Source: an uncultured Spirochaetia bacterium (GTDB taxonomy: Bacteria > Oederibacteriota > PGYV01 > CAYTNY01). From it: 54,025 nt of DNA. The notes beneath the pieces are model-generated. The model ran no database searches and was not told the DNA's origin. It worked only from the letters and a program-made list of their open reading frames with translations. The stretch's first letter is position 1. Each line of letters begins with the position of its first letter. The position numbers and the translations under genes are program-made. Positions 5,003-51,593 of this stretch are shown piece after piece. The stretch is taken from the NCBI GenBank assembly GCA_964439215.1, contig CAYTNY010000003.1:1-54025 (forward strand), written 5' to 3'.

Positions 5003-5665
5003 ATGACTCAAAAAGAAATAGTGGATTTTTTACAGAAAAGCTATCTTTTTTCGGAAGTTTCAAAAAAAGGGCTTCTGATGATTGTTAAATATGTCAGGGA
5101 AAATCATTATAAAAAAGGGGAAATTATTTTTAACGAAGGGGATACCGGAGATTCGCTTCATATTATTACCGGCGGGAAAGTAAAAATAATCAAGTATTCA
5201 AAAGAAGGAAAAACAAAAACACTTGCGGTTTTAAAGGAAAAAGACAGTTTTGGTGAAATGGCGGTTCTTACAAAAGAGGCGCGCTCTGCTACCGTGGAAG
5301 TTCTTGAAAAAGCGGAAACTTTAAGCATAACAAAATCTGATTTTGAATATATAATCAGAAAAGAACCGGTAATATCTCTTCAGATAATAAAAACCCTGTC
5401 TGAACGCCTTGCTAAAGCGGACAGAGAAATAAAAATACTGGCGCTTGGCGATGCTAAAACAAAAGTAGCGTATGTAATAAGGGATTTTGAAAAAGATTTT
5501 GAAAAGGCAAGGTTCACGCATCAGGAAATTGCGGAGCTTGCGGGCCTGACAAGAGAAACAACAACAAGAGTTTTAAAACAAATGGAAAAAGACGGAATAA
5601 TAGGCGTTGAAAAAAGAAAAATAAAAATAATAAATATGAATTATTTAAAGAAACTCTGCATGTAG
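5003..5665 (+). CDS. Crp/Fnr family transcriptional regulator (cNMP-binding)
   Basis: FGEMAVL..RSAT phosphate-binding cassette; HTH THQEIAELAGLTRETTTRVL. Confidence 0.93.
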   Translation: MTQKEIVDFLQKSYLFSEVSKKGLLMIVKYVRENHYKKGEIIFNEGDTGDSLHIITGGKVKIIKYSKEGKTKTLAVLKEKDSFGEMAVLTKEARSATVEVLEKAETLSITKSDFEYIIRKEPVISLQIIKTLSERLAKADREIKILALGDAKTKVAYVIRDFEKDFEKARFTHQEIAELAGLTRETTTRVLKQMEKDGIIGVEKRKIKIINMNYLKKLCM

Positions 5666-5685
5666 GCACGCTTAAAGGAGATATC

Positions 5686-6336
5686 ATGGAATTTAAAGCC
5701 GCAATATTTGATGTTGATGGTGTTATAGTGGACACCGCGCATATTCATCATAAATCCTGGAGAGAAGTTCTGAAAAAATACGGCGTAAATTTTACATTTG
5801 AAGATTTTAAATCCACTATTGACGGAATGCCGAGGCCAAAAGGCGCAAAAAAAATACTTCCTTTATTTAAACCAAAAGATATTGACAGAATATGCAGGGA
5901 AAAACAGGAATATTTTGATATTTTTCTTTCAAAAGACAGAGTAAAGGTTTTTAAAAGTACGGTAAATATGATAAAAAAGCTGAAAAAATACGGTATCAAA
6001 ACAGCTATGGCATCATCAAGCAAAAATGCCGAAAAAATCCTGAAAAAAGAAGGCATATACAGTCTTTTTGACGCGGATGCGCGCGGCGCATATGTAAAAA
6101 AAGGCAAACCTTACCCTGATATTTTTCTTAAAGCGGCAAAAATGCTGAAAGTAAAACCTTATGAATGTGTTGTTTTTGAAGATGCCCAGTCAGGTGTTAC
6201 TGCCGCGAAAAAAGCAGGGATGAAATGTGTGGGTATATCCCGCACCGGAGAATTAAAAGACACGGATATAACAATAGGCGATATGCGGAGTATGAATATA
6301 TTGAAGCTGCAGCAGCTTTTTAAAGGGGGAAGATGA
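5686..6336 (+). CDS. HAD-family phosphatase, beta-phosphoglucomutase-like
   Basis: FDVDGVIVDTA, ASSSKNA, GKPYPDIF, FEDAQSG motifs. Confidence 0.88.
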   Translation: MEFKAAIFDVDGVIVDTAHIHHKSWREVLKKYGVNFTFEDFKSTIDGMPRPKGAKKILPLFKPKDIDRICREKQEYFDIFLSKDRVKVFKSTVNMIKKLKKYGIKTAMASSSKNAEKILKKEGIYSLFDADARGAYVKKGKPYPDIFLKAAKMLKVKPYECVVFEDAQSGVTAAKKAGMKCVGISRTGELKDTDITIGDMRSMNILKLQQLFKGGR

Positions 6337-7403
6337 TGAAAAGAAAAAAAAGAAACCCTTTAAAATGGATGGGATTTTTAAGCGCGGCAGCGGGTATTTT
6401 AATCGCCTTTAGTTTTATGCCTGTTTATGAATTTACTCTTTATATGGTCAGGGAATACCTTAATGCGGGGCCCTATTCCGAAATAACGGTAAAAGTTATG
6501 CTTGGAATTTTTTATTTTGCGGTTTTGATTTATATGTCTTCAATGATAATGCTTAATGAATTTACCCGGAATTTTTATAATGATCTTCTTAAGGAATTCA
6601 GAAAAAAAGAGCTCCTGCCCGGCGGATATAAGATACTGAAGGGATCCAAAATAAAAAAAAGATATACGGGCATAATGGACGTAATGGATATATTTATAAA
6701 AAAATTTTTTGAAGTAAAAAAAGAAAAAGAAAAATTCTCAAAGATTATAGCAACACATCTTGATCCTTCATTAAGAAGAGAATTGGAGGACCGGGGTATA
6801 AATGAAATATATATAGGAAGCAGAAAAAAAACAGCAGCAATATTTTTTTCCGATATCAGGGGATTTACAAGTTTTACGGAAACAAATAAACCCGAAAATG
6901 TGGAAAAAGTACTCAACGATTATTTTACATTTACCACAGATATTATAAATAAAAACTGCGGAAGGGTTAATAAATACATAGGCGATGCGGTATTGGCGGT
7001 TTTTGAAGGAGCGGCAAAATATAAAGAAAGCAATGAATCGGATAAAGCCGTTATAGCATCTCTTGATATACAGACGCAGTGGGGGATGTATATCAAGAAA
7101 TGGAAGGAAACAATTGATCCGGATATAAAAATAGGACTCGGCATAGGTATCGCATGGGGGGAAATAATAACAGGCAATATGGGTTCGGAAGAAAGAATAG
7201 AATATACGGTAATAGGCGACGCGGTTAATTTTGCAAGCAGATTATGTTCAAAAGCACTGGACGGGCAGATAATAATACCTGACAGTGTTTATTTTAAAGT
7301 AAAAGAGTTTGTGGATGTTGAACCGCTGCCGCCTGTTGAAGTTAAAGGCAAGCAGGGAGTTTTTGACATATATCACGTAAAAACAAGAAGAATGCTGGCT
7401 TAA
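6333..7403 (+). CDS. Membrane-anchored class III adenylate cyclase
   Basis: Two N-terminal TM segments; FSDIRGFT, KYIGDAV (ATP-selecting Lys), YTVIGDAVNFASRL, VKGK. Confidence 0.92.
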   Translation: MMKRKKRNPLKWMGFLSAAAGILIAFSFMPVYEFTLYMVREYLNAGPYSEITVKVMLGIFYFAVLIYMSSMIMLNEFTRNFYNDLLKEFRKKELLPGGYKILKGSKIKKRYTGIMDVMDIFIKKFFEVKKEKEKFSKIIATHLDPSLRRELEDRGINEIYIGSRKKTAAIFFSDIRGFTSFTETNKPENVEKVLNDYFTFTTDIINKNCGRVNKYIGDAVLAVFEGAAKYKESNESDKAVIASLDIQTQWGMYIKKWKETIDPDIKIGLGIGIAWGEIITGNMGSEERIEYTVIGDAVNFASRLCSKALDGQIIIPDSVYFKVKEFVDVEPLPPVEVKGKQGVFDIYHVKTRRMLA

Positions 7404-21387: not shown

Positions 21388-22476
21388 TTAAGCTTTTGAC
21401 AGCTCTTTTTCCGCCTCGGCGGTCAACTCATCTATAAGTTCCTTTACCGTTACTATTTTATTTACTTTATCAACATTGGATCCGGCAAAGGCAAAACCTT
21501 CATTAAGATCACCCATAGCGGCGTTTGTAAGCGCATCCGCGATGCAATAAGGGGATTCTTTGGGTTTGCATGTTTTCAGGCATAGATAATTGCATTTAAA
21601 ATCAACTTCACCTTTTGCGGCTCTTTTTAGAAAATCATTTTTAATGGCTCTTCCGGGCATACCTACAGGGCTTTTTATAATAATTATATCATCGGCTTTT
21701 GCTTTAATATAAGCCTGTTTAAAAGCATCGTCGGCATCACATTCTTCTGTTGCGACAAAACGCGTGCCGAGCTGGACCCCTGATGCTCCGAGTTTTATGA
21801 ACTTTGCTATATCTTTTCCGTCAAAAATACCGCCTGCGGCTATTACGGGTATTTTTACTCCGGTTTCTTTTTCGTATTTATCCGCAACTTTTAAAACATC
21901 GCCGAGAAGATCTTCAAGTTTTGGCGCCGCTGCATCCGATTTTAAATCATCATAACTGAAACCTATATGTCCGCCCGCTAGCGGCCCCTCAATAACTATT
22001 GCGTCGGGAATGCGGTTATATTTTCTTATCCATGTTTTTGTTATAAGTTCAGCAACCCGCCCTGAAGATACAATAGGAGCTATTTTTGTGTCATAACCTT
22101 TTACAAGCGACGGAAGATTCATGGGAAGGCCCGCGCCTGAAAAAATAATATCAGCGCCGTTTTCACATGATGTATGCACAAAAGCGGCATAACTGCTTAA
22201 GGCAACCAGAATATTAACGGCTATTATGCCTTTTGTCATTGATTTTGCCATTTTTAAATGTGAGGCAAGCTCTGTGACATCCGCCGCCATATGAGCTTCT
22301 ATGTTTTTTCTGTCTTTTATTCTGTCGCTTTTTATTGCAGCGGATATTGTTCCTACTGCTCCGCAGTTTGCGACCGCAGAGGAAAGTTTTTCCATGGATA
22401 TTTTAATACCCATTCCGCCCTGTACTATAGGCGGATAAATATTTAAATTTCCAATTTTTAGTTCCGGTAATTTCAT
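21388..22476 (-). CDS. Nitronate monooxygenase/FabK-FabX-like flavoprotein with Cys cluster
   Basis: PIVQGGMG, SGAGLP, EGPLAGGHIG, AAGGI, VQLGTRF, SPVGMPGRA, CNYLCLKTC..YC. Confidence 0.88.
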   Translation of the reverse strand: MKLPELKIGNLNIYPPIVQGGMGIKISMEKLSSAVANCGAVGTISAAIKSDRIKDRKNIEAHMAADVTELASHLKMAKSMTKGIIAVNILVALSSYAAFVHTSCENGADIIFSGAGLPMNLPSLVKGYDTKIAPIVSSGRVAELITKTWIRKYNRIPDAIVIEGPLAGGHIGFSYDDLKSDAAAPKLEDLLGDVLKVADKYEKETGVKIPVIAAGGIFDGKDIAKFIKLGASGVQLGTRFVATEECDADDAFKQAYIKAKADDIIIIKSPVGMPGRAIKNDFLKRAAKGEVDFKCNYLCLKTCKPKESPYCIADALTNAAMGDLNEGFAFAGSNVDKVNKIVTVKELIDELTAEAEKELSKA

Positions 22477-22576: not shown

Positions 22577-23383
22577 TCAGAAAACTTTAAATCTTTTTAC
22601 TTTTTCAACCAAAAGGTCCCAGTGGTTTTTGAAGGTCCAATAATTGCCGCCATAAAAAGTTTTATGTTCTTTTATTGCCCGGCGGAAATCTTCTTCGGTT
22701 TTACCCGGGAAAAGCGTATAAGCATCGCCGATACCTTCTTTGGAATGTGAATCAGACCCGCCTGTTACAGACAGTTTCCACAGCTGTTTGTTTACTGATT
22801 GTGCTTTTGAGTCGGTTATTTTGCCTGCTATAGCCGGATTTATCAGTTCAACTGCGTCAAAATAAACATCAGGATCTTTATGGCTCATTATTGATTTAAA
22901 AGCCTGCTGCCCGACTGAAGTTGTAAGCCAGGAAAGAGGATGCGGAACAATTGCAATGCCGCCCTGCGCGTGTATCTCTTTAAGGGTATCAGCAAGGCCC
23001 GTATATCTTTTTATTCTTTTTTTCATAAAAAGCCCTATAAGATGCCCTTTTAATGTTGAAACTTCTTCGCCTATTATAACTTTTATTCTGCAGCCGCTGT
23101 CTTCGGCGTATTTTTTGGCTCTGGCCGCGCCTTTTATCTGATCGTGGTCCGTGATTGCTATCAGATCAAGATCTGTTTCTTTTTCTACATAATCAATAAT
23201 ATCCTCCGGTTTATCTATGGCATCACCGATGGATGTATGTATATGATAATCTATTTTTCCGTAACCATGCAGTGTATTCTGAGGTATAAATTCCATATAT
23301 TCATTTACGACGTGCCCTGCGGGAGGCGGCTGTGTGAAACGGCCTCTTTTTTTATTTTTCTGTACAGTTGTATTTTCAGTCAT
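22577..23383 (-). CDS. PHP-domain metal-dependent phosphoesterase
   Basis: DYHIHT, ITDHD, GEEVST..GHL, PHP, GGSDSH. Confidence 0.9.
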   Translation of the reverse strand: MTENTTVQKNKKRGRFTQPPPAGHVVNEYMEFIPQNTLHGYGKIDYHIHTSIGDAIDKPEDIIDYVEKETDLDLIAITDHDQIKGAARAKKYAEDSGCRIKVIIGEEVSTLKGHLIGLFMKKRIKRYTGLADTLKEIHAQGGIAIVPHPLSWLTTSVGQQAFKSIMSHKDPDVYFDAVELINPAIAGKITDSKAQSVNKQLWKLSVTGGSDSHSKEGIGDAYTLFPGKTEEDFRRAIKEHKTFYGGNYWTFKNHWDLLVEKVKRFKVF

Positions 23384-23437
23384 AATAAACTCCGGTTTAT
23401 TTTTGAATAAAAAAGGAACAAAGATGTTCTTGAAAAA

Positions 23438-24337
23438 TTATTTTTTCCAGAAATCCCTGAACATATACCATTGCTCGGGAAATTTCATAATAAGTTTTTC
23501 CGATTCATTCAGTATTTTTTGCGTTAAAATCTGTATATCATAATTATAGTTCCCTGATGGTTTAAAGTCAATTATTTTCCCCGGATTGCCGTAGAATTTA
23601 TTTTTGTCTCTTACGGCGCATCCGAGCATTACTTCGGCTCCGGTTTTCAGAACAATTGCGGCTGCAGTGCCTGCAACAAAAGTTTTTTTGCCGAAAAACT
23701 CCGCTTCAACGCCTCTTTTATCGGCGCGGGAAACCGGTCTGTCCACAAGAATATTTAAAATCCCGTTTGTATTAAGACAGCGGTATGCGTCTTTCAGGTT
23801 TTTGTTTGGAAGAATGACTTTTATGCCGTATTTTCCGCGTGTTTCCTGTATAAATCTTGAATATCCGCCGCCCAGATCATCTGCAATGGCGCATACATTA
23901 TCATAATGGCCGGATATGGCCAGACCCGCAATGTCCCAGTTGGAAAAATGCAGCGTGCACATAACAAGGCCTTTGCCTTTTGAAAGAGCGGTGTTGATAG
24001 TTTCTTTATTCCGCATTTCAGGAACCATTCCTTTTTTTACCATTTTATTCAGATAAAGAAATTCCGCGTTAAACATACCATAATTTTTAAAATTCTGTTT
24101 CATGACGTTTTTTATTTCTTCGGGGCGTGCGGGTCTTCCGAATTTTTTTGAGAGAATTATATTGTAGTTTTTATATACATTATCCCTTTTTTCTTTCCAC
24201 AGCATAAAAACAATTGATGTTGCGGCTGCGCCGGCCCAATAAAGAAATTTAAGAGGGATAAGCGTTATAAGAAAAACCAAAACTTTCAGCAGATAATACA
24301 TTATTTTTTCACTGATCTGCGGTTGTTTTTTTTCCAT
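23438..24337 (-). CDS. LPLAT acyltransferase, second PatA/LpxL-like copy
   Basis: HFSNWD, LVDR, EFFGK, PEQWYMF..W. Confidence 0.85.
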   Translation of the reverse strand: MEKKQPQISEKIMYYLLKVLVFLITLIPLKFLYWAGAAATSIVFMLWKEKRDNVYKNYNIILSKKFGRPARPEEIKNVMKQNFKNYGMFNAEFLYLNKMVKKGMVPEMRNKETINTALSKGKGLVMCTLHFSNWDIAGLAISGHYDNVCAIADDLGGGYSRFIQETRGKYGIKVILPNKNLKDAYRCLNTNGILNILVDRPVSRADKRGVEAEFFGKKTFVAGTAAAIVLKTGAEVMLGCAVRDKNKFYGNPGKIIDFKPSGNYNYDIQILTQKILNESEKLIMKFPEQWYMFRDFWKK

Positions 24338-25464
24338 ATTTCATGGTAAAACGCTATGTTTTTTTTAGCTATATTTTCCCATGAAAGTCTTTTGGCTTTT
24401 CTTCTTCCGTTTGTTCCCAGTTCCCGCATTATTTCCGGATGCCTTAAAAGAAGTTCAAACATTTCATAAAGATCGTGTACATCACGCGGTTTTGCGAGAA
24501 GTCCGTCCTCAAGATTTGCCACAACATCATTGTAACCGTTTATATTAAAGGCAATTACAGGAAGTCTGGCGGACATGGCTTCTAAAAGCACTATGCCGAA
24601 TGACTCTCCGAAAAGAGCGGTGGAGCTGTATATATGGGATGTTCTGTAATAACACGGCAGGGCGTTTGTTGATACAAAACCCTCAAAATGAATATCCGGA
24701 ATATTGTGTGCTTTACAGTACTGCATAAGTTTTTTGCCGAGTGGGCCCTTGCCTACAATTATCAGGCGTATATTGTTATAATTTTCCCTAAGCTGTTTAA
24801 ATGCTTTTATAAGATATATAAGGCCTTTTCGCTTTTCTATTCTGCCCGTAAAAAGTATATTTATTTTACCATCGTTGTATTTTTCTATTTTCGGGCCCTT
24901 TGAGCAGAAACGGTTTATATCAACGCCGTTCGGTATTATTTCTATGTCAGGGCCGTGAAAATATTTTGTTATGGAGCTTTTTGCGGAAGGGGAAACCGCT
25001 ATTTTACCGTGAAGTTTTCCCCAAAGCGGAGCAATAAAGCCGGAAGAACATTTGTACCAGAGATTGGAGTCGAAATTCGCGTGAAAAGTGGCGATATTAA
25101 CAGAGTCAGAATATTTTATTATATCGTGTGATAAAAAAGGCACAAAAGGCTCCTGCATATGTATTATATCAAATTTATGCTTGGCAAGGGCCTGCTTAAC
25201 TTTTTCACCGCGGCGTATAAGTATTATTCTTCCTGTTGAGCCGTTTACTTTGAAAGGCACTCCGTGTCCAAGCCGGATGACATCTTTTTCATCGCGCGAG
25301 GTTTTGGCTTTGCCGTTTGTGAAACCTCCGGTAATTACTTTTACAAGATAGCCCATATTTTTATATTCTTTTTTCAGATGATAGACATATTCCTGCACAC
25401 CTCCGTAAAGCGGATAGTAGTAAGGTGTTACTATAGCGATTTTATGAAAGGTTTTTTTTCTCAT
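24301..25464 (-). CDS. GT4 glycosyltransferase, PimA-like phosphatidylinositol alpha-mannosyltransferase
   Basis: GGVQEYV, VPFKVNGSTGRI, HMQEPFVP, ATFH, GRIEKRKG, GESFGIVLLEAM parallel PimA motifs (GGVQSHV, PYNGSVAR, HEP, GESFGIVLVEAM). Confidence 0.8.
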   Translation of the reverse strand: MRKKTFHKIAIVTPYYYPLYGGVQEYVYHLKKEYKNMGYLVKVITGGFTNGKAKTSRDEKDVIRLGHGVPFKVNGSTGRIILIRRGEKVKQALAKHKFDIIHMQEPFVPFLSHDIIKYSDSVNIATFHANFDSNLWYKCSSGFIAPLWGKLHGKIAVSPSAKSSITKYFHGPDIEIIPNGVDINRFCSKGPKIEKYNDGKINILFTGRIEKRKGLIYLIKAFKQLRENYNNIRLIIVGKGPLGKKLMQYCKAHNIPDIHFEGFVSTNALPCYYRTSHIYSSTALFGESFGIVLLEAMSARLPVIAFNINGYNDVVANLEDGLLAKPRDVHDLYEMFELLLRHPEIMRELGTNGRRKAKRLSWENIAKKNIAFYHEIWKKNNRRSVKK

Positions 25465-26341
25465 AACTGCCTCTTTCCGTATTTTTATTTTTTTCCGCAA
25501 CCCATATATTCTGAAGCATACACCATTGTTCCGGATGCATTTTCAGCAGTTTCTCCATTTCATAAATCATCTGCCGCGTAAGTTTCAATGTATTTTCCTC
25601 ATTCTTTGCGTGTTTGTCAACATTTAACATTTTTTCCGCAAAAACCGGTTTATACTGCAGATGATTTTCAGATGCCCGGAACATACTTCCTATTATTATT
25701 AAGGAATTTGTCATTAATGCAAGTTTAGCCGGACCTGAGGGGATATAGGCTTTTTTACCGAAAAAATCCATTTTATATCCGTTTTTTTCAAGGTCGCGGT
25801 CAGCAGCAAGTACAAGCAGCTCTCCGTTGTTTAATACTTTTATCATTTTTTTTATGTCAGTAGAGCGTATAATATTAACGCCCCATTCATTTCTTGTTTC
25901 CGTGAACCATCGGAAAAAAGAGGGAGAAAGTTCTTCGACCACCACATTTATTTTTCCCGGAAAATATGAAGACAAAAAAGGCCCGCCGGCGTCCCAGTTG
26001 CCGGCGTGCATTGATATAATTATGACACCTTGTTTTGCGTTTAGGCGCGAGGTTATTTCCGGCTTATAGGAGGCAAATCCGGATCCATCAATATTTTTAA
26101 GAATGGTTTCTTTTTTCTGAAAAAGATCAAAATAGTACCGTGCGTAATTTTTATATACGGTTTTCAGCAAAGAAGCAGAGGGAGCGGTGTTTTTTAAAAC
26201 ATATGCAAGATTTCTGCGTAGAATATGTTTTTTTTTTGAGAAGCGATATAAAAAAAGCGCTGCTGTTTCAAAAAGGAAATATCCCGCTTTACGCGGGATA
26301 TTTCCCAGTATAATTTTTGAAAATTTCAGAAAACCATACAT
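25442..26341 (-). CDS. PatA-like PIM acyltransferase (LPLAT)
   Basis: YARYYFDLF, HAGNWDAGG, ADRDL..G..MDFFG...IPSGPAKLA, PEQWCMLQNIW, all PatA-like. Confidence 0.8.
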   Translation of the reverse strand: MYGFLKFSKIILGNIPRKAGYFLFETAALFLYRFSKKKHILRRNLAYVLKNTAPSASLLKTVYKNYARYYFDLFQKKETILKNIDGSGFASYKPEITSRLNAKQGVIIISMHAGNWDAGGPFLSSYFPGKINVVVEELSPSFFRWFTETRNEWGVNIIRSTDIKKMIKVLNNGELLVLAADRDLEKNGYKMDFFGKKAYIPSGPAKLALMTNSLIIIGSMFRASENHLQYKPVFAEKMLNVDKHAKNEENTLKLTRQMIYEMEKLLKMHPEQWCMLQNIWVAEKNKNTERGSYEKKNLS

Positions 26342-27448
26342 TTATTTTTTCTTTTTTGTTGTTTTCTTTTTTGTTTTTTTAAGCCCCACGAATTTTTCAA
26401 CCATTGATTTGGCTACTGAGTCCCTGAATTGTTTAGGAGGGGTTTTCATAAAATAAGCGGCCGGCCCTTCAAGAATACCGCCGATTTTTCTGTCTTTTGC
26501 TACTTTTGCGCATCTTAAAGCGTCTATTATGACACCCGCGCTGTTCGGGGAGTCCCATACTTCAAGTTTTAGTTCCAGATTCAGAGGAACTTCGCCGAAG
26601 TTTTCGCTTTCTATTCTTATATGGCACCATTTTCTGTCAAGAAGCCAGGGAATATGGTCCGATGGACCCACGTGAACATCCGCTTTATCGTCTATTTCGT
26701 TCTGCATCTGAGAAAGAACCGCATTTGTTTTTGATATTTTCTTGCTGTGCAGTCTTTCTCTTTCAAGCATATTTTTGAAATCCATATTGCCGCCGAAATT
26801 CAACTGATAAGTTTTAAGGATCCTGCAGCCTCTGTCTCCGAATAACTCGGTAAGAACCCTGTGTACGATGGTTGCGCCGACCTGCGATTTTATATCGTCA
26901 CCAATAATCGGAACACCTGCTTTCTTGAATTTTGCCGCCCATTCCTTATTTGAAGCGATAAAAACGGGTATTGCGTTTACAAAGGCGACTTTGGCATCAA
27001 GACATGCCTGTGCGTAATATTTTGTTGCTTCTTCCGAGCCCACGGGCAGATAACTTATAAGAACATCTGCTTTTGATTTCTTAAGTTCTTCCGCAACGTT
27101 TACCGGTATTTGTTTTGATTCAGTAATGACTTCGCTGTAATATTTGCCTATACCGTCCAGCGTAGGGCCGCGTTTTACGGTGATTCCTGTTTTTGTAAGT
27201 TTGGCAAATTCAATGGTGTTGTTGGGATAGCTTTCAAGCGCGTTTTTTGCGTCTTTTCCCACTTTGTTTTTGTCAACATCAAAAGCAGCCACAAGCTCTA
27301 TGTCTTTGATCCTGTAGCCTCCCAGATTTGCGGTCATAAGACCCGGTACAAAAGCACTGTCATTTACGTTTTTGTAAAACTCAAGCCCCTGCATAAGCGA
27401 CCATGCGCAGTTTCCCATACCTGCAATTGCGATTTTTACTTTTCCCAT
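26342..27448 (-). CDS. ino1: Myo-inositol-1(3)-phosphate synthase
   Basis: [53 protein letters not shown]. Confidence 0.96.
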
Positions 27449-27480
27449 CTGAAATTTCCTCCTTGAAAACTATGAATTAT

Positions 27481-28071
27481 TTATGATTTTGCCTGTTCGT
27501 TGACAAGCATAAACCGCTGAATAACAGTTATTATTGAAAGAACAGCAATTATCCACAAGGCAATAATTACATAATTCAGTACAAGCCCCGCTATAATGAC
27601 GGTCATACGTTCAAACCGCGTAAAAATACCGGCGGCACAGTCTATTTTCAGCCCTCCTGCTCTTGCTCTGATGTAACTTACAAGAAAAGAAGAGAACATC
27701 ACTGTATAGCAGAGTATGGTTCCGGTGATGTTTCCGGAATCAGCGTAATAAACAAGAAGTGCAAGATATAAGACTCCTTCTGAAAGACGATCGGTTACAG
27801 AGTCCAGAAAACCGCCGAATTTTGTTTTTTTGTTCATTTGACGGGCCAGAGCACCGTCAAGAAGGTCAAAAAGACTGCCGAAAAGAATTATGAATCCGCC
27901 TGTTAAGAATTCCCCGCTGAATATAAAAAAAGCGCCTGCGGCATTGATGAAAAAGCCCGTCCATGTAATAAAATTAGGCGTTATTCCTGTTTTGTTTAAA
28001 ACAATAATAACAGGCGACAGCGCTTTTTCACTCGCAATTTTAAGAAAATCCCTTATTTTTTTTACAATCAT
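27481..28071 (-). CDS. CDP-alcohol phosphatidyltransferase, PIP-synthase (actinobacterial PgsA/AIP synthase) type
   Basis: TPNFIT, DLLDGALAR..GGFLDSVTDR, VSYIRARA, TRFER; next to ino1; ATG 28071 preferred over the longer ORF. Confidence 0.88.
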   Translation of the reverse strand: MIVKKIRDFLKIASEKALSPVIIVLNKTGITPNFITWTGFFINAAGAFFIFSGEFLTGGFIILFGSLFDLLDGALARQMNKKTKFGGFLDSVTDRLSEGVLYLALLVYYADSGNITGTILCYTVMFSSFLVSYIRARAGGLKIDCAAGIFTRFERMTVIIAGLVLNYVIIALWIIAVLSIITVIQRFMLVNEQAKS

Positions 28072-28239
28072 AATTTTACAAACTCCGTACTTGATAAATG
28101 AATAGTCAATAGATGCATAAAACAAATTTTTTATACCATTTACAGCGGTAAATGTCAACGGGAAAGAATTTTTATGCTTGCTTTTTAAAAACAATGATTA
28201 TAAAGTGTTAACAGTAAAAAAAATGAAGCGGGGTAATAT

Positions 28240-32040: not shown

Positions 32041-32790
32041 ATGAAAAGGCTGTTTTATAAAAAAATTATACTGTTGGCTGTTATTATTGTTTTTATTCCA
32101 AATGCAAATGCGCAGGAAACGGTTTTTGACCGGATATTTTTTGAAGGTTTTGCGGATATGGGAAGTATTATGGCGGATAATCCCGCTTCAACAGCAATAA
32201 CTGTATCAGGGATTGCTCTTATTTCTTATGGTATAATGAAAAATGACAAATGGATGCTTGAAAGCATACAGGGGCTTGAAAATGATTTCTGGAAAAATAC
32301 ATTTGAATGCGCAAATTATTTCGGGGACGGGATATTTGTGCTGGCCGCAAATTCTTTTTTCTTTCTCGGCGGTGAAAAAGAAAAAGATACAGCTGAAAAA
32401 GTTATTGAGGCAATAGCCATAGCCGGAACAGTAGCCTATGGCATAAAAATGACAGCCGGAAGGAGCCGGCCGTCTGTTGCGGATAATCCGTATATATATA
32501 ATCTTTTTACGTTTGATGATATGTCCATGCCGTCGGGGCATACGGCGGTTGCTTTTGCCTGGGCATCTGTAGTGGGCGATCAGTATGATATAGGACATAT
32601 AACATATCCGGCCGCGGCGCTTGTCGGCCTGGCAAGGGTTTATAAGAACAAACACTGGCTTTCTGATGTGCTTATAGGGGCGGCAATAGGTACTTTAGCC
32701 GGAAAGACAGCGGCAGAGCGTCCGGAAATAGATATACAGGGTGGTATTTATGAAGGCAACGCAAACCTTATGCTCAGCTGGAAATATTAA
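32041..32790 (+). CDS. PAP2-family phosphatase with signal peptide
   Basis: KMTAGRSRP, PSGH, ARVYKNKHWLSDV. Confidence 0.9.
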   Translation: MKRLFYKKIILLAVIIVFIPNANAQETVFDRIFFEGFADMGSIMADNPASTAITVSGIALISYGIMKNDKWMLESIQGLENDFWKNTFECANYFGDGIFVLAANSFFFLGGEKEKDTAEKVIEAIAIAGTVAYGIKMTAGRSRPSVADNPYIYNLFTFDDMSMPSGHTAVAFAWASVVGDQYDIGHITYPAAALVGLARVYKNKHWLSDVLIGAAIGTLAGKTAAERPEIDIQGGIYEGNANLMLSWKY

Positions 32791-41501: not shown

Positions 41502-42551
41502 GTGAAAACAAGCAGAGACAGAATCAAAATAGGAGTGCTCAAAGCTGATAATATAGGGGACGCGGTTTTAGCGTCCCCTTTTTTTTACGGGCTCAGGCGG
41601 CATTATAAAAACGCGGAAATAACAGGCATACTGTCTCCTGCCGGCGAGCAGGTTCTCGGAGGGCTTGGGGTGATGGACAACATTGAAATTATAGAGCCGA
41701 AATGGCTGTCGTATAAAAAAACTTTCCGCATAAAAAGGATTCTTTCTGCTTTTAAAGTTATAAGGGCCATAAACAGGAATAAATTTGATATTCTAATAGG
41801 CATGCGGTATCAGGACAGGTTGACTTCCTTTATACTCTCGCTTTCAAACGCAAAAGAGAAGATAGGATACAATACCGGAGGCATGGGATTCGGGATAACC
41901 GGAAAAATGCCTCCCCCTGAAAAAGGAATCCATGAATCCCGGAAAAATATGATGCTGCTTTATAAAGTCTGCGGAAAAATGCATAAGGGGAAATTCGGAT
42001 TCAGTATTGACGCGGCTGCTGAAGAAAATGTAAAAAAGGTGCTTGCAAAAGGAAAAATAAAAAAATTTACTGTAATTCATCCTGTGTCCGGGCATGCTTC
42101 CAAGGACTGGGGTATCGGGAATTATAAAATACTGTCAAAAATACTGGCGCGCAGAGGAAAAGTCATAATAATCGGAGGAAAAAATGATCCTCGTATAAGG
42201 GAGTTTAAAGGCAGAAATATTGTGAATTTAGCGGGGATGCTTACCATAAGAGAACTTGGGGCGCTTATAAGAAAGGCGGAATTTGTAATCGGAAATGATT
42301 CCGCGGCTGTTCATATAGCCGGCGTTTTGGACATAAAATCGCTGACTCTGTTTTCAGGTGCGGCTGACCCGAAAGAATGGGCGCCGGCGGGAAAGAATTC
42401 TTTTGTCATGTACAAAAAAGTCTCCTGCAGCGGCTGCGGCCTGCTTGAATGCGATAAAAAACACGAATGCATGGATTTTGACCCGGAAGATGTTATAAAG
42501 ACCATAAGAAATATAAGAGCAGGAAGGCAGAGAAAGAAGATGATAGAGTAA
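41502..42551 (+). CDS. GT9 heptosyltransferase-like glycosyltransferase
   Basis: IGDAVLASP, KDW, GNDSAAVHIA, C-terminal CxxC..C..C. Confidence 0.88.
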   Translation: MKTSRDRIKIGVLKADNIGDAVLASPFFYGLRRHYKNAEITGILSPAGEQVLGGLGVMDNIEIIEPKWLSYKKTFRIKRILSAFKVIRAINRNKFDILIGMRYQDRLTSFILSLSNAKEKIGYNTGGMGFGITGKMPPPEKGIHESRKNMMLLYKVCGKMHKGKFGFSIDAAAEENVKKVLAKGKIKKFTVIHPVSGHASKDWGIGNYKILSKILARRGKVIIIGGKNDPRIREFKGRNIVNLAGMLTIRELGALIRKAEFVIGNDSAAVHIAGVLDIKSLTLFSGAADPKEWAPAGKNSFVMYKKVSCSGCGLLECDKKHECMDFDPEDVIKTIRNIRAGRQRKKMIE

Positions 42552-42731
42552 AGGGTGCTTGGGATATAGATTAAGTAAAAAACATATAAAATTTGTTTAT
42601 GTTTTGATTTTTGTTTCCCGGTTTATTAATTTTTTTATCTCTGGTGTTGTTTTTTAGGGGATAAATTCATTCTTATTTTATTCTTTGCTTTATGCTAAAA
42701 TACTTTAACTTATTTATTATCAGGGAGTGTT

Positions 42732-43616
42732 ATGTCTAAGACGGCTTTGAAACAAAAAGCAATTTATGACGGAGAAAATAAAGAATATGTACCTGTATAT
42801 GCCAACAGGAAAGAGTGGAAGACAGCTGTTCAATCATATATTGCGCGCGCTGAAAATAAAATGCTGGGTACTTCTTTAAAAGCTGTTCGTAATATTAAAG
42901 AAATAGAAAAACTTTCCCTGAAAAAAGGGGAAAAAGTTCTTGATGCGGGATGCGGGGGCGGCATACTTATAAACCAGCTGCGCGCTGCTTACGCTATAAA
43001 AGGATACGGAGTTGATATTTCTTCTTTGGCTGTAAGGAGGGCAAAAGAAAGCGGCTATAAAGACATAATATACCGGAACGCAGAGCTTGAACAACTTCCG
43101 TTTAGATCCGGTGTTTTTGATGTTATAGTTTCTTTTGACGTGCTGGAGCATATTGAAAATAAGGAAAAGGTTTTAAAGGAATTTTTCAGGGTTTTAAAGC
43201 CCGGCGGCAGGATGCTTTTGTATGTGATATCAAAAAGAGACCTTTTTACCTGGCACTGGTTTTTAAGAATAATTACATTCAAAAGAGCGGGAAATGACAC
43301 CGAAGGCGGACATTTCAGGGAGCTTTTTGCGGATCCGCGGGAAATAAAAAAAATAATCAGCAGAAATCACGCCGCAGAATGCAGAATATCCTATTTTCAT
43401 TCTTTTTTTACGTTGCTAATAGATGAAGTCTTGTTTAAAATAGTGAATAAAAGGAAAAAAGGCACGAACCGCCGCGCGGCGGCCCGCGTTCCGGATTCAA
43501 AAAAAAGTTTTATTTATAAAATTCTTTATTTTATGCATCCTGTTTTTGAATTGGCGGATTTTCCCTGGAAAGCAGCGGGGCTGAGCAATGGTTTTTTTAT
43601 AAAGATAAAAAAATAA
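42732..43616 (+). CDS. Class I SAM-dependent methyltransferase
   Basis: VLDAGCGGG, LPF...FD, VLEH, RVLKPGG. Confidence 0.9.
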   Translation: MSKTALKQKAIYDGENKEYVPVYANRKEWKTAVQSYIARAENKMLGTSLKAVRNIKEIEKLSLKKGEKVLDAGCGGGILINQLRAAYAIKGYGVDISSLAVRRAKESGYKDIIYRNAELEQLPFRSGVFDVIVSFDVLEHIENKEKVLKEFFRVLKPGGRMLLYVISKRDLFTWHWFLRIITFKRAGNDTEGGHFRELFADPREIKKIISRNHAAECRISYFHSFFTLLIDEVLFKIVNKRKKGTNRRAAARVPDSKKSFIYKILYFMHPVFELADFPWKAAGLSNGFFIKIKK

Positions 43617-43635
43617 GATATCCGAAAGGAAGCAA

Positions 43636-44400
43636 ATGGAACAGGAAAATAAAAGACAGCAGTGGGAGCAAACGCAGCTGCAGTGGTCAGACAGGGATTT
43701 TCTGGAAAACAAAGCAAATGCACTTATGAAAAAAAGATGGAAAAGGCTTGAATTAACAGCTGCTTCCATGATAGAAAAAGAAGATGTAAAAAACAATGAA
43801 CTTGTGAAAGTTCTTGATATAGGCGCCGGAAGAGGCGAGTTTTACAGATGCATAAAGGATATTGTACGGCAGTATACCGGTGTTGAGCCTTCCGCGGAAA
43901 TGCTTGAAAATGAAATATTTGAAGATGATTTTATAATGCTTAAGGGCAGCGGCGAAACCATGGAATTCAGGGAAGAATTCAATATATGTATTATAAAAGA
44001 AGTTCTTGATCATTGCTATGATCCTGTAAAAGTTATTGAGAACAGCCGGCAGGCGCTGAAACCCGGCGGGCTTATTATAATAAGCCTGACAAACAGCAGT
44101 GCTTATTATAAATTACTATTTAAAAAAAAGGCGAAACAGCTTGAAAAAGAACACAGGGATCATCTTTTTAATTTTAATCCCGAAGAAATAAAAAAAATTT
44201 TATCGGATGCGGGATTTGAAGAAATAATGATAAAATCTGTTAATTATCTCAGAATGCCTTATTTTGCGGAGGAAATTACAGGCAAGTTCCCCGAAAAAAC
44301 GGTATTTGCGCTGCTTGATATTACAGATGCGGCGGGCAGAATGTTCATGAACGGAAAAGGCGGCAGTTTTATTGTGTCGGGCAGAAAACCGGAAAAATAA
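43636..44400 (+). CDS. Class I SAM-dependent methyltransferase
   Basis: VLDIGAGRG, VLDH, LKPGG, HLFNF. Confidence 0.9.
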   Translation: MEQENKRQQWEQTQLQWSDRDFLENKANALMKKRWKRLELTAASMIEKEDVKNNELVKVLDIGAGRGEFYRCIKDIVRQYTGVEPSAEMLENEIFEDDFIMLKGSGETMEFREEFNICIIKEVLDHCYDPVKVIENSRQALKPGGLIIISLTNSSAYYKLLFKKKAKQLEKEHRDHLFNFNPEEIKKILSDAGFEEIMIKSVNYLRMPYFAEEITGKFPEKTVFALLDITDAAGRMFMNGKGGSFIVSGRKPEK

Positions 44401-44425
44401 AAACTGAAAAAACGGAGCAACGAAA

Positions 44426-45574
44426 ATGATTATAGGAATAGACGGAAGAATAATATACAAGCGCGGTGTGGGGAGATATATAGCAAATCTTATAAAACGT
44501 CTTTTGGAAACTGACAAAAAAAACCGCTATATAATTTATCTTGATAAAAATTCCTCGCTGAATGAAATTATAAGGGCTAAAAACGTAAAGTTCAGAAGAC
44601 TTTTTACCTCAAATGCTTTTTATTATGAGCAGTTTCTTCTTCCTTTGGCCGCCGCAGGGGATAAGGTTGATGTTCTTCATGGAACAGACAATACACTGCC
44701 GTGTCTGTTTCCGATGAAATGCAGAAAGGCTGTTACAATACATGATGCAATGCATATACGCCCGCTAAAAAAAGTTATTGCAAAACCCACCATAAAACAA
44801 AGAATGACGGATATATACAATAAAATATTTATTCCTATGTCAGCAAGAAAAGCGGATGCTGTGATAACGGTCTCGGATTATTCAAAAAGCGATATTGTTA
44901 AATATATAGGGGTTAATGAGGATAAAGTGTTCAGCATAAAGGAAGGCATTGATCCTAAATATAAAATTGTATCGTCGGAAAAAAAGATAAACCGGGTAAA
45001 AGAAAAATACGGAATAACAAAAAAGTATATTTTTATGAGCGCCGCATCTGACACCAGAAAAAACACAATAAGGTCGCTGGAAGCTTTTAATATATTCAAC
45101 AATCTTACGGAATATTCCTATCAGCTTGTAATTACATCAATCGGCGGCAAAGAAATGGCCACAACAAATGTCATGAAAAAGATCAGGGAACTTAACCTGG
45201 AAAAATATATTGTCATAACTGGATATGTATCCGATGACGACATGATCCTGCTTTATAACGGTGCGTTTATGTTTCTTTTTCCGTCTATCTGGGAAGGTTT
45301 CGGGCTCCAGATACTGGAAGCATTTGCATGCGGGACCCCTGTTGTAACATCCGATAATACATCGCTAAAAGAAATCGCAGGCAGCGCCGCGGAATTCATA
45401 GATCCTTTTTCGGTTGAAGATATAGTTGGAGGTATGATGGCAATACATAAGAGTGCGGCTAAGAGAAAGTCGCTTGTAAAAAAAGGAGCTGAAAGGGTAT
45501 CCGGATTTTCCTGGAAAACAACGGCTCAACAGACTCTCCGGGTATATGAGGAGATCACAGGCAGGGAAAAATGA
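44426..45574 (+). CDS. GT4 glycosyltransferase (MtfB/WbaZ-like)
   Basis: IGIDGR, GVGRY, TIHD, RKN, EGFGLQILEAFACG. Confidence 0.92.
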   Translation: MIIGIDGRIIYKRGVGRYIANLIKRLLETDKKNRYIIYLDKNSSLNEIIRAKNVKFRRLFTSNAFYYEQFLLPLAAAGDKVDVLHGTDNTLPCLFPMKCRKAVTIHDAMHIRPLKKVIAKPTIKQRMTDIYNKIFIPMSARKADAVITVSDYSKSDIVKYIGVNEDKVFSIKEGIDPKYKIVSSEKKINRVKEKYGITKKYIFMSAASDTRKNTIRSLEAFNIFNNLTEYSYQLVITSIGGKEMATTNVMKKIRELNLEKYIVITGYVSDDDMILLYNGAFMFLFPSIWEGFGLQILEAFACGTPVVTSDNTSLKEIAGSAAEFIDPFSVEDIVGGMMAIHKSAAKRKSLVKKGAERVSGFSWKTTAQQTLRVYEEITGREK

Positions 45575-47181
45575 AACCTTATTCTTCGGGGAAAAAACCG
45601 CCGGTTTATTATATATTTTTATTTTTTCTGGGCGGTATAATTTTAAGAGGGGCGGGTCTGGCGTCCCAAAGTGTATGGATAGATGAATTCTGCACCGCTA
45701 AATTTGCGGGAAGGGATTCTGTTTTTTTTGTTTTCTGGGAAATCTACGCAAGGGATATGCATCCTCCAACATGGTATCTACTTAATCATTTTATGGGCAA
45801 ATTGTTTGGTTTTTCCGAACTTACAATAAGAATTCTTCCTTTTATATTCAGTATTGTCTGTATGGCGGTTTTTTACAGGCTGACAAGGGTATTTTTTTCC
45901 GAAAAAATAAGTCTTGCGGCGTTCTTTCTTTTTGCATTTAATCCTTATCAGATATATTATGCCCAGGAAGCAAGAATGTACACAATGTTCTTAATGACAT
46001 CTTTATTTATAATGTATTATTTTCTGATGTCATTGAAATATAATACGTTTCTAAAAGGTGCGTTTACTTTCTGGGCGGTTGCAGGTATTTATACGCACAG
46101 TTATACGGTTTTTATAATACTTATACTTAATGGGGTCCTGTTTTTGAAATACAGGGAAGAAATAAGAATAAAAGAATGGATGAAGTCTATGGCGGTAATT
46201 CTGCTGTCTGCCCTGCCTCTGTTTCCTTTGTTTTTAAAAGGCGCCGCGGGGGATCAATATTCTCACAACGTAGGCATGCTGTTTGCTCCGGTTTATACAC
46301 TGAAAAATTTTATTTTTGGAATAACAATGCCTTTTAACTGGATAAGTTTGACCGCTTTAATCGGGGTTCTTTATTTTATTATGCTTGGTATATTTACATA
46401 CGGAAAAAATATCCGAAAAGCAGTAAATGTAACCGCCATAACAGCAGGCGTATTTATGTTTTTTCCCTGGATTATATCCATTTTAAATAAACCGGTTTAT
46501 TCTGACAGGACTTTTATACTTGTATCTGCAATAGTTATTCTTCTTTTAGGGGCCGGTATATCGTATCTGTCAAAGCCCGCGGCAGCCGGGGTGCTTTTGA
46601 TAATAAGCTGTTTTTATGCGGTATCGCTTTATAATTATTATTTTAATCCGGAGTATCAAAAAACAGATTATGCCGTTCAGTTTGAATTTATAAAAGATAA
46701 TTTTAAGGAAGGGGATATTATAGTGCATTCCCACGTAAATTCATATGCCGCGTATGAATTTTACAACAGTTTAAAATATAAAACAGAATTTGAAAACAGG
46801 CTGCTGAATGAAATACCGGAATTCCGCGGAAGCGGCATGAGAATGAAGATAAGGGAAATCTGGAGAACTTTCAGGGAAAAAATATTAAAAGAAAAACTGA
46901 ATCTGGATATCTATGCAGGTTATGACAGAAATGCACTTCCCGGGGCAGAGGCGGAAAAAATAATGAAAAACTATGACCGTGTGTGGTTTGTGCGGGATAA
47001 TAAAAAAGGTATAAAACAGGTATGGCTGCCGCTTGGAAATGTCTGGAACTCTTCATATGAAGAAATAGGGCTGCCCGAACCTGTTGATATAAAAACAATA
47101 AAGTGGGTTAAAAAATATTTTAAAACCGCCGAAGAATACGGATATTTAGGAAATAAAGTATATCTGCTGGAAAGAAAATGA
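45571..47181 (+). CDS. GT-C (PMT/ArnT-like) membrane glycosyltransferase
   Basis: SVWIDE, HPPTWY, YAQEARMY; multiple TMs. Confidence 0.85.
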   Translation: MKPYSSGKKPPVYYIFLFFLGGIILRGAGLASQSVWIDEFCTAKFAGRDSVFFVFWEIYARDMHPPTWYLLNHFMGKLFGFSELTIRILPFIFSIVCMAVFYRLTRVFFSEKISLAAFFLFAFNPYQIYYAQEARMYTMFLMTSLFIMYYFLMSLKYNTFLKGAFTFWAVAGIYTHSYTVFIILILNGVLFLKYREEIRIKEWMKSMAVILLSALPLFPLFLKGAAGDQYSHNVGMLFAPVYTLKNFIFGITMPFNWISLTALIGVLYFIMLGIFTYGKNIRKAVNVTAITAGVFMFFPWIISILNKPVYSDRTFILVSAIVILLLGAGISYLSKPAAAGVLLIISCFYAVSLYNYYFNPEYQKTDYAVQFEFIKDNFKEGDIIVHSHVNSYAAYEFYNSLKYKTEFENRLLNEIPEFRGSGMRMKIREIWRTFREKILKEKLNLDIYAGYDRNALPGAEAEKIMKNYDRVWFVRDNKKGIKQVWLPLGNVWNSSYEEIGLPEPVDIKTIKWVKKYFKTAEEYGYLGNKVYLLERK

Positions 47182-48869: not shown

Positions 48870-48895
48870 AAATTCCGAAAAGGGCATATGAAATA

Positions 48896-48948
48896 TTGAC
48901 AATAAAAGAAAAGGTTAGTATAATTAAAATAAGTTAGAAGAGTATAAC
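48896..48948 (+). promoter_or_regulatory. Consensus sigma70 promoter plus DtxR/MntR-like operator
   Basis: TTGACA-17-TATAAT (48896-48924); GTTAG-N6-ATAAC near-palindrome at 48933-48948. Confidence 0.7.
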
Positions 48949-48963
48949 AAAGGCGGTATAATT

Positions 48964-49431
48964 ATGAACGGGAAAAATTTAACACCCGCAATGGAAGATT
49001 ATATAGAAACAATATATCTGCTTGAACAAAAGAATAAAGTTGCAAGGGTATCTGAAATCGGCAGGTCAATGAAAGTAAGAAAAGCGAGTGTTGTTTCCGC
49101 GGTTTCAAATCTCCGGAAGCAGGATCTTATAAACCATGAAAAATATGGTTTTATTACTCTGACACAGGCCGGCAGGGAAACCGCAGAAACAGTTTATAAA
49201 AAACATAAAATAATACTGGAATTTCTTGAAAATATTTTAAAAGTTGAGCCGGAAAAAGCTATTGAAGAGGCGTGTAAAATAGAGCATGTACTCAGCGGCA
49301 ATACAGTAGATAAACTCAGTGTTTTTTTAGAGCAGTTTAAAACAGTGGAAAAAAACGAGACTAAAAATGAAAATACTAAAAACAGGAAAGTGAAAAAAAA
49401 TGCAGCCTCAAAAAAGAAAGTTTCTAAGTGA
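48964..49431 (+). CDS. DtxR/MntR family metal-dependent repressor
   Basis: MEDYIETIY, wHTH, KH..LE.FL, EACKIEH. Confidence 0.93.
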   Translation: MNGKNLTPAMEDYIETIYLLEQKNKVARVSEIGRSMKVRKASVVSAVSNLRKQDLINHEKYGFITLTQAGRETAETVYKKHKIILEFLENILKVEPEKAIEEACKIEHVLSGNTVDKLSVFLEQFKTVEKNETKNENTKNRKVKKNAASKKKVSK

Positions 49432-49639
49432 CATAAAAAAGGGAACCGCCGTAAAAGTGGCCGGAGTACACGGCGGAAGATCCATGGTGCACAGACTGAA
49501 TACAATGGGGATAATACCGGGAACCGATATAAAGATCGTACATGAATCAAAGGGCCCCGTAATAATAGAAGCCAGAGGTTCAAGAATAGCGCTTGGGAGG
49601 GGGATGGTATCAAAAATAGAGGTTGAAACAGGGGATTAA
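49400..49639 (+). CDS. feoA: FeoA family protein
   Basis: RLNTMGIIPG..GPVII..SRIALGRG. Confidence 0.88.
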   Translation: MQPQKRKFLSDIKKGTAVKVAGVHGGRSMVHRLNTMGIIPGTDIKIVHESKGPVIIEARGSRIALGRGMVSKIEVETGD

Positions 49640-51511: not shown

Positions 51512-51593
51512 AAAAAGACTCCTTTTTTTGAAAAAGTTAAGATATAATACCGATAATAAAAATAATTATAAAGGTATTTGAAAAAAAATTCAA

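Follow-up and report, generated by a model that had tools for sequence, protein, structure and literature searches.

Phosphatidylinositol mannosides (PIMs) and the genes of their biosynthesis are regarded as a hallmark of the Actinobacteria. Whether a bacterium outside this phylum, and one with a lipopolysaccharide (LPS)-type envelope, may build comparable lipids from a single gene set is the question raised by a cassette of six genes on the 54,025-bp stretch of DNA analyzed here (hereafter the window; contig CAYTNY010000003.1 of assembly GCA_964439215.1), which stems from an uncultured Spirochaetia bacterium (GTDB lineage Oederibacteriota; PGYV01; CAYTNY01). In the direction of transcription the cassette encodes a phosphatidylinositol phosphate (PIP) synthase-type CDP-alcohol phosphatidyltransferase (PIPS), a myo-inositol-3-phosphate synthase (INO1), a first acyltransferase (AT1), a family 4 glycosyltransferase (GT4), a second acyltransferase (AT2), and a phosphoesterase of the PHP superfamily (PHP). 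A first interpretation made from the DNA letters alone (the sequence-only reading) had proposed an operon for PIM-like inositol glycolipids. According to the analyses reported here, the six genes probably do constitute one operon for building an acylated glycosyl-phosphatidylinositol from central metabolites, a reading to which we assign a probability of about 0.7. It draws on the protein families and their conserved catalytic residues, on the occurrence of the six-gene set in two orders, and on its separation from the host genes for lipid A and phosphatidylglycerol (PG).

The genome of the host (G000) has a size of 2.35 Mb, a completeness of 99%, and a G + C content of about 38%. Its lpxC gene scores above the curated NCBIfam cut-off, and a GT9 heptosyltransferase is encoded in the window (41502-42551). 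Both confirm an LPS-type envelope; the organism thus makes LPS without belonging to the Actinobacteria, as had been supposed.

Conservation of the gene set in two arrangements

Six open reading frames (ORFs) lie on the minus strand between 22577 and 28194 without another long ORF interleaved, and the ORF list contains neither a PgpA gene nor any other gene between the six. PIPS and INO1 are separated by a gap of 32 nt, INO1 and AT1 abut with zero gap, AT1 and GT4 overlap by 23 nt (with GT4 starting at 25464), GT4 and AT2 overlap by up to 37 nt, and a 54-nt gap lies between AT2 and PHP. The six genes are thus co-oriented, tightly packed, and partly overlapping, just as the sequence-only reading had described them, and Pfam and NCBIfam assigned them to the six families named there.

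When the ino1 neighborhoods of 20 related genomes were compared, 16 of the loci showed the complete set in unchanged order, mostly next to the same divergently oriented lepB-hemW-proA flank; this arrangement of six families is far beyond chance. Two of the remaining four loci are cut contigs (2 and 4.5 kb), and two come from other orders and possess ino1 alone or ino1 with PIPS. Orthologs of GT4 and PHP occur in the same 21 of the 24 species genomes of the order. The genomes lacking them comprise G002 (96% complete) and G009 (89%), both of which also lack ino1, and G008 (82%), where PIPS-ino1 is located at the end of a 4.5-kb contig. Elsewhere in the phylum, no GT4 ortholog (E <= 1e-45) was found in 75 genomes, and ino1 was present in 2 of 7 sampled genomes; within the host phylum, the glycolipid part of the cassette is confined to one order. 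In one genome of another order (G030:C12, locus L027, 9136-16461), PIPS-ino1 are co-oriented and directly follow a kdsD-kdsC-lpxL-lptC-lptA-lptB row, and neither a PimA-like GT4 nor a PHP gene was found at this locus.

A second arrangement was found on metagenome contigs. Relatives of PHP with 40-48% identity carry the NCBI names of metagenome-assembled genomes from Chloroflexota, Anaerolineae, Dehalococcoidia, and Thermomicrobia. Metagenome contigs were scanned with the PHP alignment, and the 80 loci obtained were searched with the six window proteins for four partner families on the same strand and within 7 kb of PHP, namely PIPS, ino1 (at least 40% identity), GT4 (at least 30% identity), and acyltransferase. 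At least one partner family was detected at 45 of the 80 loci, at least three at 25, and all four at 15, 14 of which had two acyltransferases; many of the loci without a partner lie on contigs of 1-3 kb. Of the 22 loci flanked by 3 kb or more on each side, 13 have at least three partner families. A further eight of these 22 have no partner gene at all, which counts against the proposed operon; with PHP identities of at most 40%, these eight are probably paralogs. The usual gene order on these contigs is INO1-AT-AT-PHP-GT4-PIPS, as opposed to PIPS-INO1-AT1-GT4-AT2-PHP in the window. The G + C content of the contigs is 54-71%, bar one Goldbacteria-like contig. The low-GC setting stressed in the sequence-only reading thus applies to the host genome, but the cassette as such is not peculiar to it.

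Since the six families are kept together through rearrangement and across great distance, there is strong evidence that they act in one pathway and that the cassette represents a conserved functional unit. The nearest named relatives of the high-GC GT4 proteins belong to Chloroflexota classes and Dormibacteraeota. The automatic JGI names of these proteins already read "phosphatidylinositol alpha-mannosyltransferase," and the likeness to PimA is in itself not new in databases. In a GT4 tree of 46 rows, the clade of the host order is sister to the high-GC clade and not nested within it. This topology allows neither a donor nor a direction of transfer to be named. No further conserved cassette genes were found on the high-GC contigs. 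Sporadic neighbors are a DAO-family FAD oxidoreductase between GT4 and PIPS at two loci (L062, 9821-10954; L066, 11021-12154), a PMT_2 GT-C protein 3' of the cassette (L056), and PAP2 and acyl-CoA-synthetase-like genes 5' of GT4-PHP (L096).

PIP synthesis and the phosphatase question

PIPS matched PF01066 (CDP-OH_P_transf) with 64.6 bits, and its best NCBIfam models were archaetidylinositol phosphate (AIP) synthase (143.7 bits) and PIP synthase (142.8 bits), followed at a distance by the models for di-myo-inositol phosphate (DIP) synthase (DIPPS; 53 bits), pgsA (39 bits), and pssA (35 bits). Its best solved relative is PDB 6h53 (E = 7.9e-24). Judged by these scores, the best matches of PIPS are PIP/AIP synthases and not PgsA, PssA, or DIP synthase. 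The search of the whole host genome yielded only two CDP-alcohol transferases, with no PssA-type match among them; a true pgsA is located on contig C31 (160.9 bits, above its cut-off of 109.1). INO1, which is 76-82% identical across the order, matched PF01658 with 119.5 bits and TIGR03450 with 540.8 bits.

A route via PIP synthase requires a phosphatase for the conversion of PIP to phosphatidylinositol (PI). To our knowledge, this enzyme is still unassigned for most bacteria that carry a PIP synthase. In Bacteroides it is the PgpA-family protein BT_1525, before which no bacterial PIP phosphatase had been identified according to PMC9246714. PHP is the best candidate for this function in the cassette, of which it is a fixed member. 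Its orthologs have a length of 232-261 amino acids, and the metal ligands of the DxHxH, DHD, E, H, and DxH motifs (D4, H6, H8, D38, H39, D40, E66, H73, H107, D170, and H172 in the numbering of alignment A3) do not vary among 22 sequences drawn from the two types of cassette. An AlphaFold2 model of PHP (mean pLDDT 92.6) had its best fold match in TM0559 (2anu; E = 3e-11), and the nearest solved folds, with 14-23% identity, are the uncharacterized PHP phosphoesterases TM0559 and BVU_3505, RNase AM, and other PHP enzymes. Ligands and predicted fold point to a metal-dependent phosphoester hydrolase; they give the chemistry, not the substrate.

As to the substrate, no PgpA, PAP2, HAD, or inositol monophosphatase gene was found inside the inspected cassettes, where PHP is the sole hydrolase. 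The single PgpA gene of the host is located on contig C31 and overlaps pgsA at stop and start (G000:C31, locus L146, 149-2588, a rimO-pgsA-pgpA row), with which it forms the synthase/phosphatase pair for PG. In addition, at two metagenome loci (L095, 8878-12040; L099, 2530-4201) a PHP relative lies directly 5' of a PIP synthase resembling BT_1523, in L095 with an ISAs1-family transposase between the two, and no GT4 or acyltransferase was found on either contig. Because PHP is the sole hydrolase of the cassette, PgpA is tied to pgsA, and such PHP-PIP synthase pairs exist, PIP would be the most likely substrate of PHP, with about an even chance of being the actual one.

The alternative that survives best, although we regard it as unlikely, accepts the synthesis of PI and glycosyl-PI and assigns the PIP phosphatase step to PgpA or to a PAP2-superfamily phosphatase encoded in the window (32041-32790, plus strand). 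PHP would then have another task, such as hydrolyzing a nucleotide by-product, remodeling headgroups, or serving as an inositol monophosphatase. The PAP2 gene, for which no NCBIfam match was obtained, is situated 3' of proA-nadD on the divergent side, about 4 kb from the cassette, and the host possesses a PgpA, the family that acts on PIP in Bacteroides. The nearest characterized relatives of PHP act on nucleotides or RNA (RNase AM, 3',5'-bisphosphate phosphatase), and two genomes that lack ino1 (G024, G027) nevertheless carry PHP relatives, with 34-39% identity. Other points also count against PHP as the PIP phosphatase: its role is deduced from gene association only, its nearest solved folds are uncharacterized PHP proteins and RNase AM, and in G030 the PHP relative adjoins phoR/phoB on a contig other than that of PIPS-ino1. 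Moreover, a search of Corynebacterium glutamicum, a PIM maker, gave no PHP_C match, and an enzyme of this kind would therefore not explain the PIP step of Actinobacteria. What speaks for PHP and against PgpA or PAP2 is the coupling of PgpA to pgsA, the lack of other phosphatase genes inside the cassettes, the retention of PHP with the other five genes in two gene orders, and its pairing with PIP synthase alone in L095 and L099.

Glycosyltransferase and acyltransferases

The likeness of the remaining proteins to PimA and PatA was judged by their scores against solved structures and NCBIfam models. A profile of 13 GT4 orthologs (A1), searched against PDB chains, matched PimA of Mycobacterium smegmatis (2gej) over the full length (profile positions 7-374) with 190.6 bits (E = 3.5e-55), compared with 87.5 bits for the next best chain, 72-73 bits for MshA-type chains, and 68 bits for PimB'. 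With the single GT4 sequence, the scores were 133.4 bits for PimA and 61 bits for the next chain. Among characterized GT4 enzymes, the cassette protein thus appears closest to PimA over its full length, in agreement with the PimA-like motifs noted in the sequence-only reading. PMC9202250 names ten residues critical for PimA as well as donor-contact residues. In a HMMER alignment, nine of the ten are kept in GT4 (Y9, Q18, N63, R68, H118, R196, E199, R201, and E274), among them the PI-binding Q18, N63, and R68; the R68 position is R in 10 of the 13 orthologs and Q in 3. The phosphate and mannose contacts G15, G16, K202, E274, S275, F276, I278, and E282 are kept as well. PI is well supported as the predicted acceptor of GT4.

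Both acyltransferases belong to the Pfam family Lip_A_acyltrans. The best NCBIfam model for AT1 is the PIM acyltransferase NF005919 (152.1 bits; next model 92 bits), and among PDB chains PatA (5f2t) reached an E-value of 2.6e-19 as compared with 5e-4 for LpxM (5kn7), which bears out its earlier description as PatA-like. AT2 matched NF006270 with 111.2 bits and NF005919 with 91.3 bits, and its E-values were 7.3e-9 for PatA and 4.5e-4 for LpxM. According to PMC4792965, H126 of PatA is catalytic and forms a charge relay with E200, while E149, R164, and H284 are acceptor residues. H126, D131, and R164 are kept in AT1 and AT2; E149 is kept in AT1 and replaced by D in AT2.

A maximum-likelihood tree (quick search, LG+G4) was calculated from 75 of 92 rows, retaining only loci with two full-length acyltransferases and adding as non-cassette rows the separate LpxL-like protein of the host (G000:C45) and LpxL and LpxM of Escherichia coli. 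The 72 cassette acyltransferases formed one clade (SH-aLRT 99) that excluded all non-cassette rows. AT2 thus clusters with AT1, apart from LpxL and LpxM, and the grouping with lipid A acyltransferases that would have spoken against the proposal was not observed. The Goldbacteria-type AT1 and AT2 were sisters in this tree (SH-aLRT 98), with AT1 on a long branch. By the tblastn labels and the patterns of NCBIfam scores, in contrast, the counterpart of AT1 in the high-GC cassettes is the PHP-proximal acyltransferase and that of AT2 is the ino1-proximal one. In six such cassettes, 11 of the 12 acyltransferases scored best with the PatA model, and the PHP-proximal copy had the larger PatA margin, paralleling AT1 versus AT2 in the window. 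One-to-one orthologs of AT1 and AT2 between the two cassette types did not emerge from the tree.

These results make it very unlikely that GT4 and both acyltransferases act on lipid A, LPS, or glycosyl-diacylglycerol, with ino1 and PIPS being mere neighbors. Such a role would suit the Pfam family of the acyltransferases, the best NCBIfam model of AT2 (a lipid A lauroyl acyltransferase) and that of GT4 (monoglucosyl-diacylglycerol synthase, 91 bits with a cut-off of 400), the fact that the host makes LPS, and the position of PIPS-INO1 behind the lpxL-lptCAB operon in G030. However, GT4 is far nearer to PimA than to other solved GT4 enzymes and retains the PI-binding residues; the families travel with ino1 and PIPS across distant lineages in two gene orders; the cassette acyltransferases are separate from LpxL, LpxM, and the LpxL-like protein of the host; and PatA is the best model for nearly all acyltransferases of the high-GC cassettes. 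A soluble product, such as a mycothiol-like or di-myo-inositol-phosphate-like compound or a mannosyl-inositol solute, is the least probable of all, for although ino1 is also the first step toward mycothiol and inositol solutes, TIGR03450 is named after the mycothiol ino1, and MshA-type enzymes are among the weaker matches of GT4, PIPS reaches 143 bits with the PIP/AIP synthase models versus 53 with that of DIP synthase, MshA-type chains score 53-73 bits versus 133-190 for PimA in the profile and single-sequence searches, and solute synthesis has no role for two lipid-type acyltransferases.

Several observations weigh against an inositol glycolipid pathway of the PIM type. All equivalog scores of the cassette proteins are under the curated cut-offs: PIPS is below the thresholds of the AIP synthase (143.7 vs. 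180 bits) and PIP synthase models (142.8 vs. 170), INO1 is under the TIGR03450 cut-off of 638, and AT1 and AT2 are both below that of NF005919 (209), with the lipid A model outscoring the PatA model for AT2. By NCBI's rule the cassette proteins are thus distant relatives and not members of these families. In the acyltransferases, E200 of PatA is replaced by D in both proteins and H284 by C in AT1 and Y in AT2; at the E200 block, proteins of the HtrB/MsbB/PatA group have either Glu or Asp (PMC4792965). In GT4, Y62 of PimA is V, and S, T, and L take the places of the reported guanine/ribose contacts D252, D253, and K256. Because these three contacts are changed, the donor of GT4 may differ from that of PimA. 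The caveat of the sequence-only reading that the transferred sugar need not be mannose is fair, as the mannose contacts are kept and the three guanine/ribose contacts are not.

Proposed pathway

In the pathway that we propose, Ino1 would cyclize glucose-6-phosphate to inositol-3-phosphate, which PIPS would join with CDP-diacylglycerol to yield PIP. PHP would then take the phosphate off PIP to give PI, and the PimA-like GT4 would put a hexose, most likely mannose from GDP-mannose, on the inositol of PI. Finally, AT1 would acylate the sugar in the manner of PatA, and AT2 would acylate a second position, for example on the inositol. The order of the steps, the positions of acylation, the sugar, and the acyl donors are modeled on the mycobacterial pathway as described in PMC3229680 and PMC9490103, and we likewise infer the substrate of PHP and the final lipid product.

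A supply of GDP-mannose in the host is plausible. For two host proteins, one of them fused to a phosphomutase, the best NCBIfam model is that of Rv-type mannose-1-phosphate guanylyltransferase (284 and 266 bits). Both scores are under the cut-off of 440 bits and the bifunctional ManC model TIGR01479 gave no match in the host genome, which counts against the proposed pathway. The GT4 of the host next in similarity to the cassette protein is a paralog encoded elsewhere (G000:C100:1469-2719; L149), next to genes for a GAF-ANTAR regulator, a DUF2225 protein, and an aminotransferase. With PimA it reaches no more than 63 bits; among solved chains it matches PimB' of C. glutamicum best (78.9 bits over the C-terminal half only; next chain 65 bits), a weak hint that it may be a second mannosyltransferase.

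Gene models, signals, and neighboring genes

The features of the locus are compiled in Table 1. PIPS is listed as an ORF from 27481 to 28194 with a TTG start. Its true start probably is the ATG at 28071, since orthologs have a length of 196-219 amino acids and a GGAG motif lies 11 nt upstream; together with a promoter-like site, these data confirm the end coordinate of 28071 that had been assumed for the cassette. GT4 is listed as 24301-25500, and alignment with 12 orthologs indicates the ATG at 25464 as its likely start. The promoter-like site, TTGACA and TATAAA with a 17-nt spacer, is located 59 nt 5' of the ATG at 28071 and within the longer TTG frame of the PIPS ORF. It was found by direct reading, as the promoter scan accepts only -10 hexamers with T as their sixth base and therefore did not list it. 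The scan for promoters and terminators yielded no more sites than in shuffled sequence, and no terminator-like site was found by it on the minus strand within the cassette.

Table 1. Coordinates of the inositol lipid cassette and its promoter-like site in the window.
Feature	Position	Strand	Product or description	Length (aa)	Basis
Promoter-like site	28130..28158	-	TTGACA-17 nt-TATAAA; divergent intergenic region with lepB		Consensus match only
PIPS	27481..28071	-	PIP-synthase-type CDP-alcohol phosphatidyltransferase	196	PF01066; NCBIfam; PDB 6h53
INO1	26342..27448	-	Myo-inositol-3-phosphate synthase (ino1/MIPS)	368	PF01658; TIGR03450
AT1	25442..26341	-	PatA-like acyltransferase	299	Lip_A_acyltrans; NF005919; PDB PatA 5f2t
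GT4	24301..25464	-	PimA-like glycosyltransferase	387 (from ATG 25464)	Glycos_transf_1 + Glyco_transf_4; PDB PimA 2gej
AT2	23438..24337	-	Second PatA/LpxL-superfamily acyltransferase	299	Lip_A_acyltrans; NF006270, NF005919
PHP	22577..23383	-	Metal-dependent phosphoesterase; candidate PIP phosphatase	268	PF02811 (PHP) + PF13263 (PHP_C)

Just 3' of PHP, an NMO/FabK-like FMN oxidoreductase is encoded on the minus strand (21388-22476), with a TTGGCA-18-TATAAT site of its own. It was considered as a member of the cassette and rejected because of this promoter-like site and its absence from all 20 loci of the relatives. An LPS/O-antigen-type cluster extends 3' of rpoD (41502-53971). It is headed by the GT9 heptosyltransferase gene and contains genes for two methyltransferases, a GT4, a PMT_2 GT-C protein, an unassigned 563-aa ORF, a Wzy_C ligase-like gene (minus strand), a flippase, and a GT2. 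Another row, on the plus strand 3' of gyrB (5003-7403), consists of genes for a Crp-type cNMP-binding regulator, a HAD hydrolase, and an adenylate/guanylate cyclase.

Comparison with known systems and implications

As stated in the sequence-only reading and described in PMC3229680, mycobacteria have an operon of pgsA, an acyltransferase gene, and pimA, with ino1 (Rv0046c) located elsewhere. The cassette resembles this PIM operon of the Corynebacterineae (Rv2612c pgsA1, Rv2611c patA, Rv2610c pimA) in that genes for a PIP synthase, a PatA-family protein, and a PimA-type protein adjoin, and in that its proteins retain PimA residues for catalysis and PI binding as well as the catalytic His of PatA. 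It differs in including ino1, a second acyltransferase, and a PHP phosphoesterase, in lacking thrS, HIT, and Nudix neighbors, and in having no clear continuation toward pimB' or pimE linked to it. The host is an LPS-making, non-actinobacterial organism, and identity to the actinobacterial proteins is low. In the BT_1522-BT_1526 cluster of Bacteroides thetaiotaomicron (PMC9246714), MIPS and PIP synthase are likewise clustered and a dedicated PIP phosphatase is present. However, that phosphatase belongs to the PgpA family and the product is channeled into inositol phosphoceramide, whereas the hydrolase of the cassette is of the PHP family, PgpA is encoded with pgsA elsewhere, and the downstream enzymes are PimA- and PatA-like.

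At the level of single proteins, AT1 and AT2 share PF03279 and a His-centered active site with LpxL and LpxM but form a separate clade, and their genes adjoin those for inositol lipids and not those for lipid A. The PHP protein has the fold and metal-binding residues of TM0559, RNase AM/TrpH, and histidinol phosphatase; unlike the known PHP phosphoesterases, its subfamily is defined by its place in an inositol lipid cassette. A literature search, which covered few subscription journals and no supplements, yielded no report of a PHP enzyme with a lipid substrate and no paper on the cassette, on its distribution, or on a PIP phosphatase of the PHP type. PMC9490103 treats the mycobacterial inositol acyltransferase as not yet identified and raises the speculation that this enzyme acts in the periplasm and has no kinship with PatA. 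In that case, AT2 would be an analog and not an ortholog of it.

We tentatively suggest, with the odds still somewhat against the suggestion as a whole, that PIM-type lipids are not a speciality of the Actinobacteria: a portable six-gene module would occur in Goldbacteria-like diderms with LPS and widely in Chloroflexota- and Dormibacteraeota-type bacteria, PHP would be a new kind of lipid phosphatase that completes the PIP synthase route to PI in place of the PgpA-type enzyme of Bacteroides, and AT2 would carry out a second acylation, directed for example to the inositol. As the cassette is present both in a candidate phylum that makes LPS and in many Chloroflexota-type genomes, PIM-like lipids would have a wider range than known so far. 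Compact and widespread, it constitutes a minimal gene set that can be directly expressed and assayed. PHP represents a concrete, testable candidate for the phosphatase that converts PIP to PI, and the paired acyltransferases offer a handle on the multi-site acylation of inositol glycolipids.

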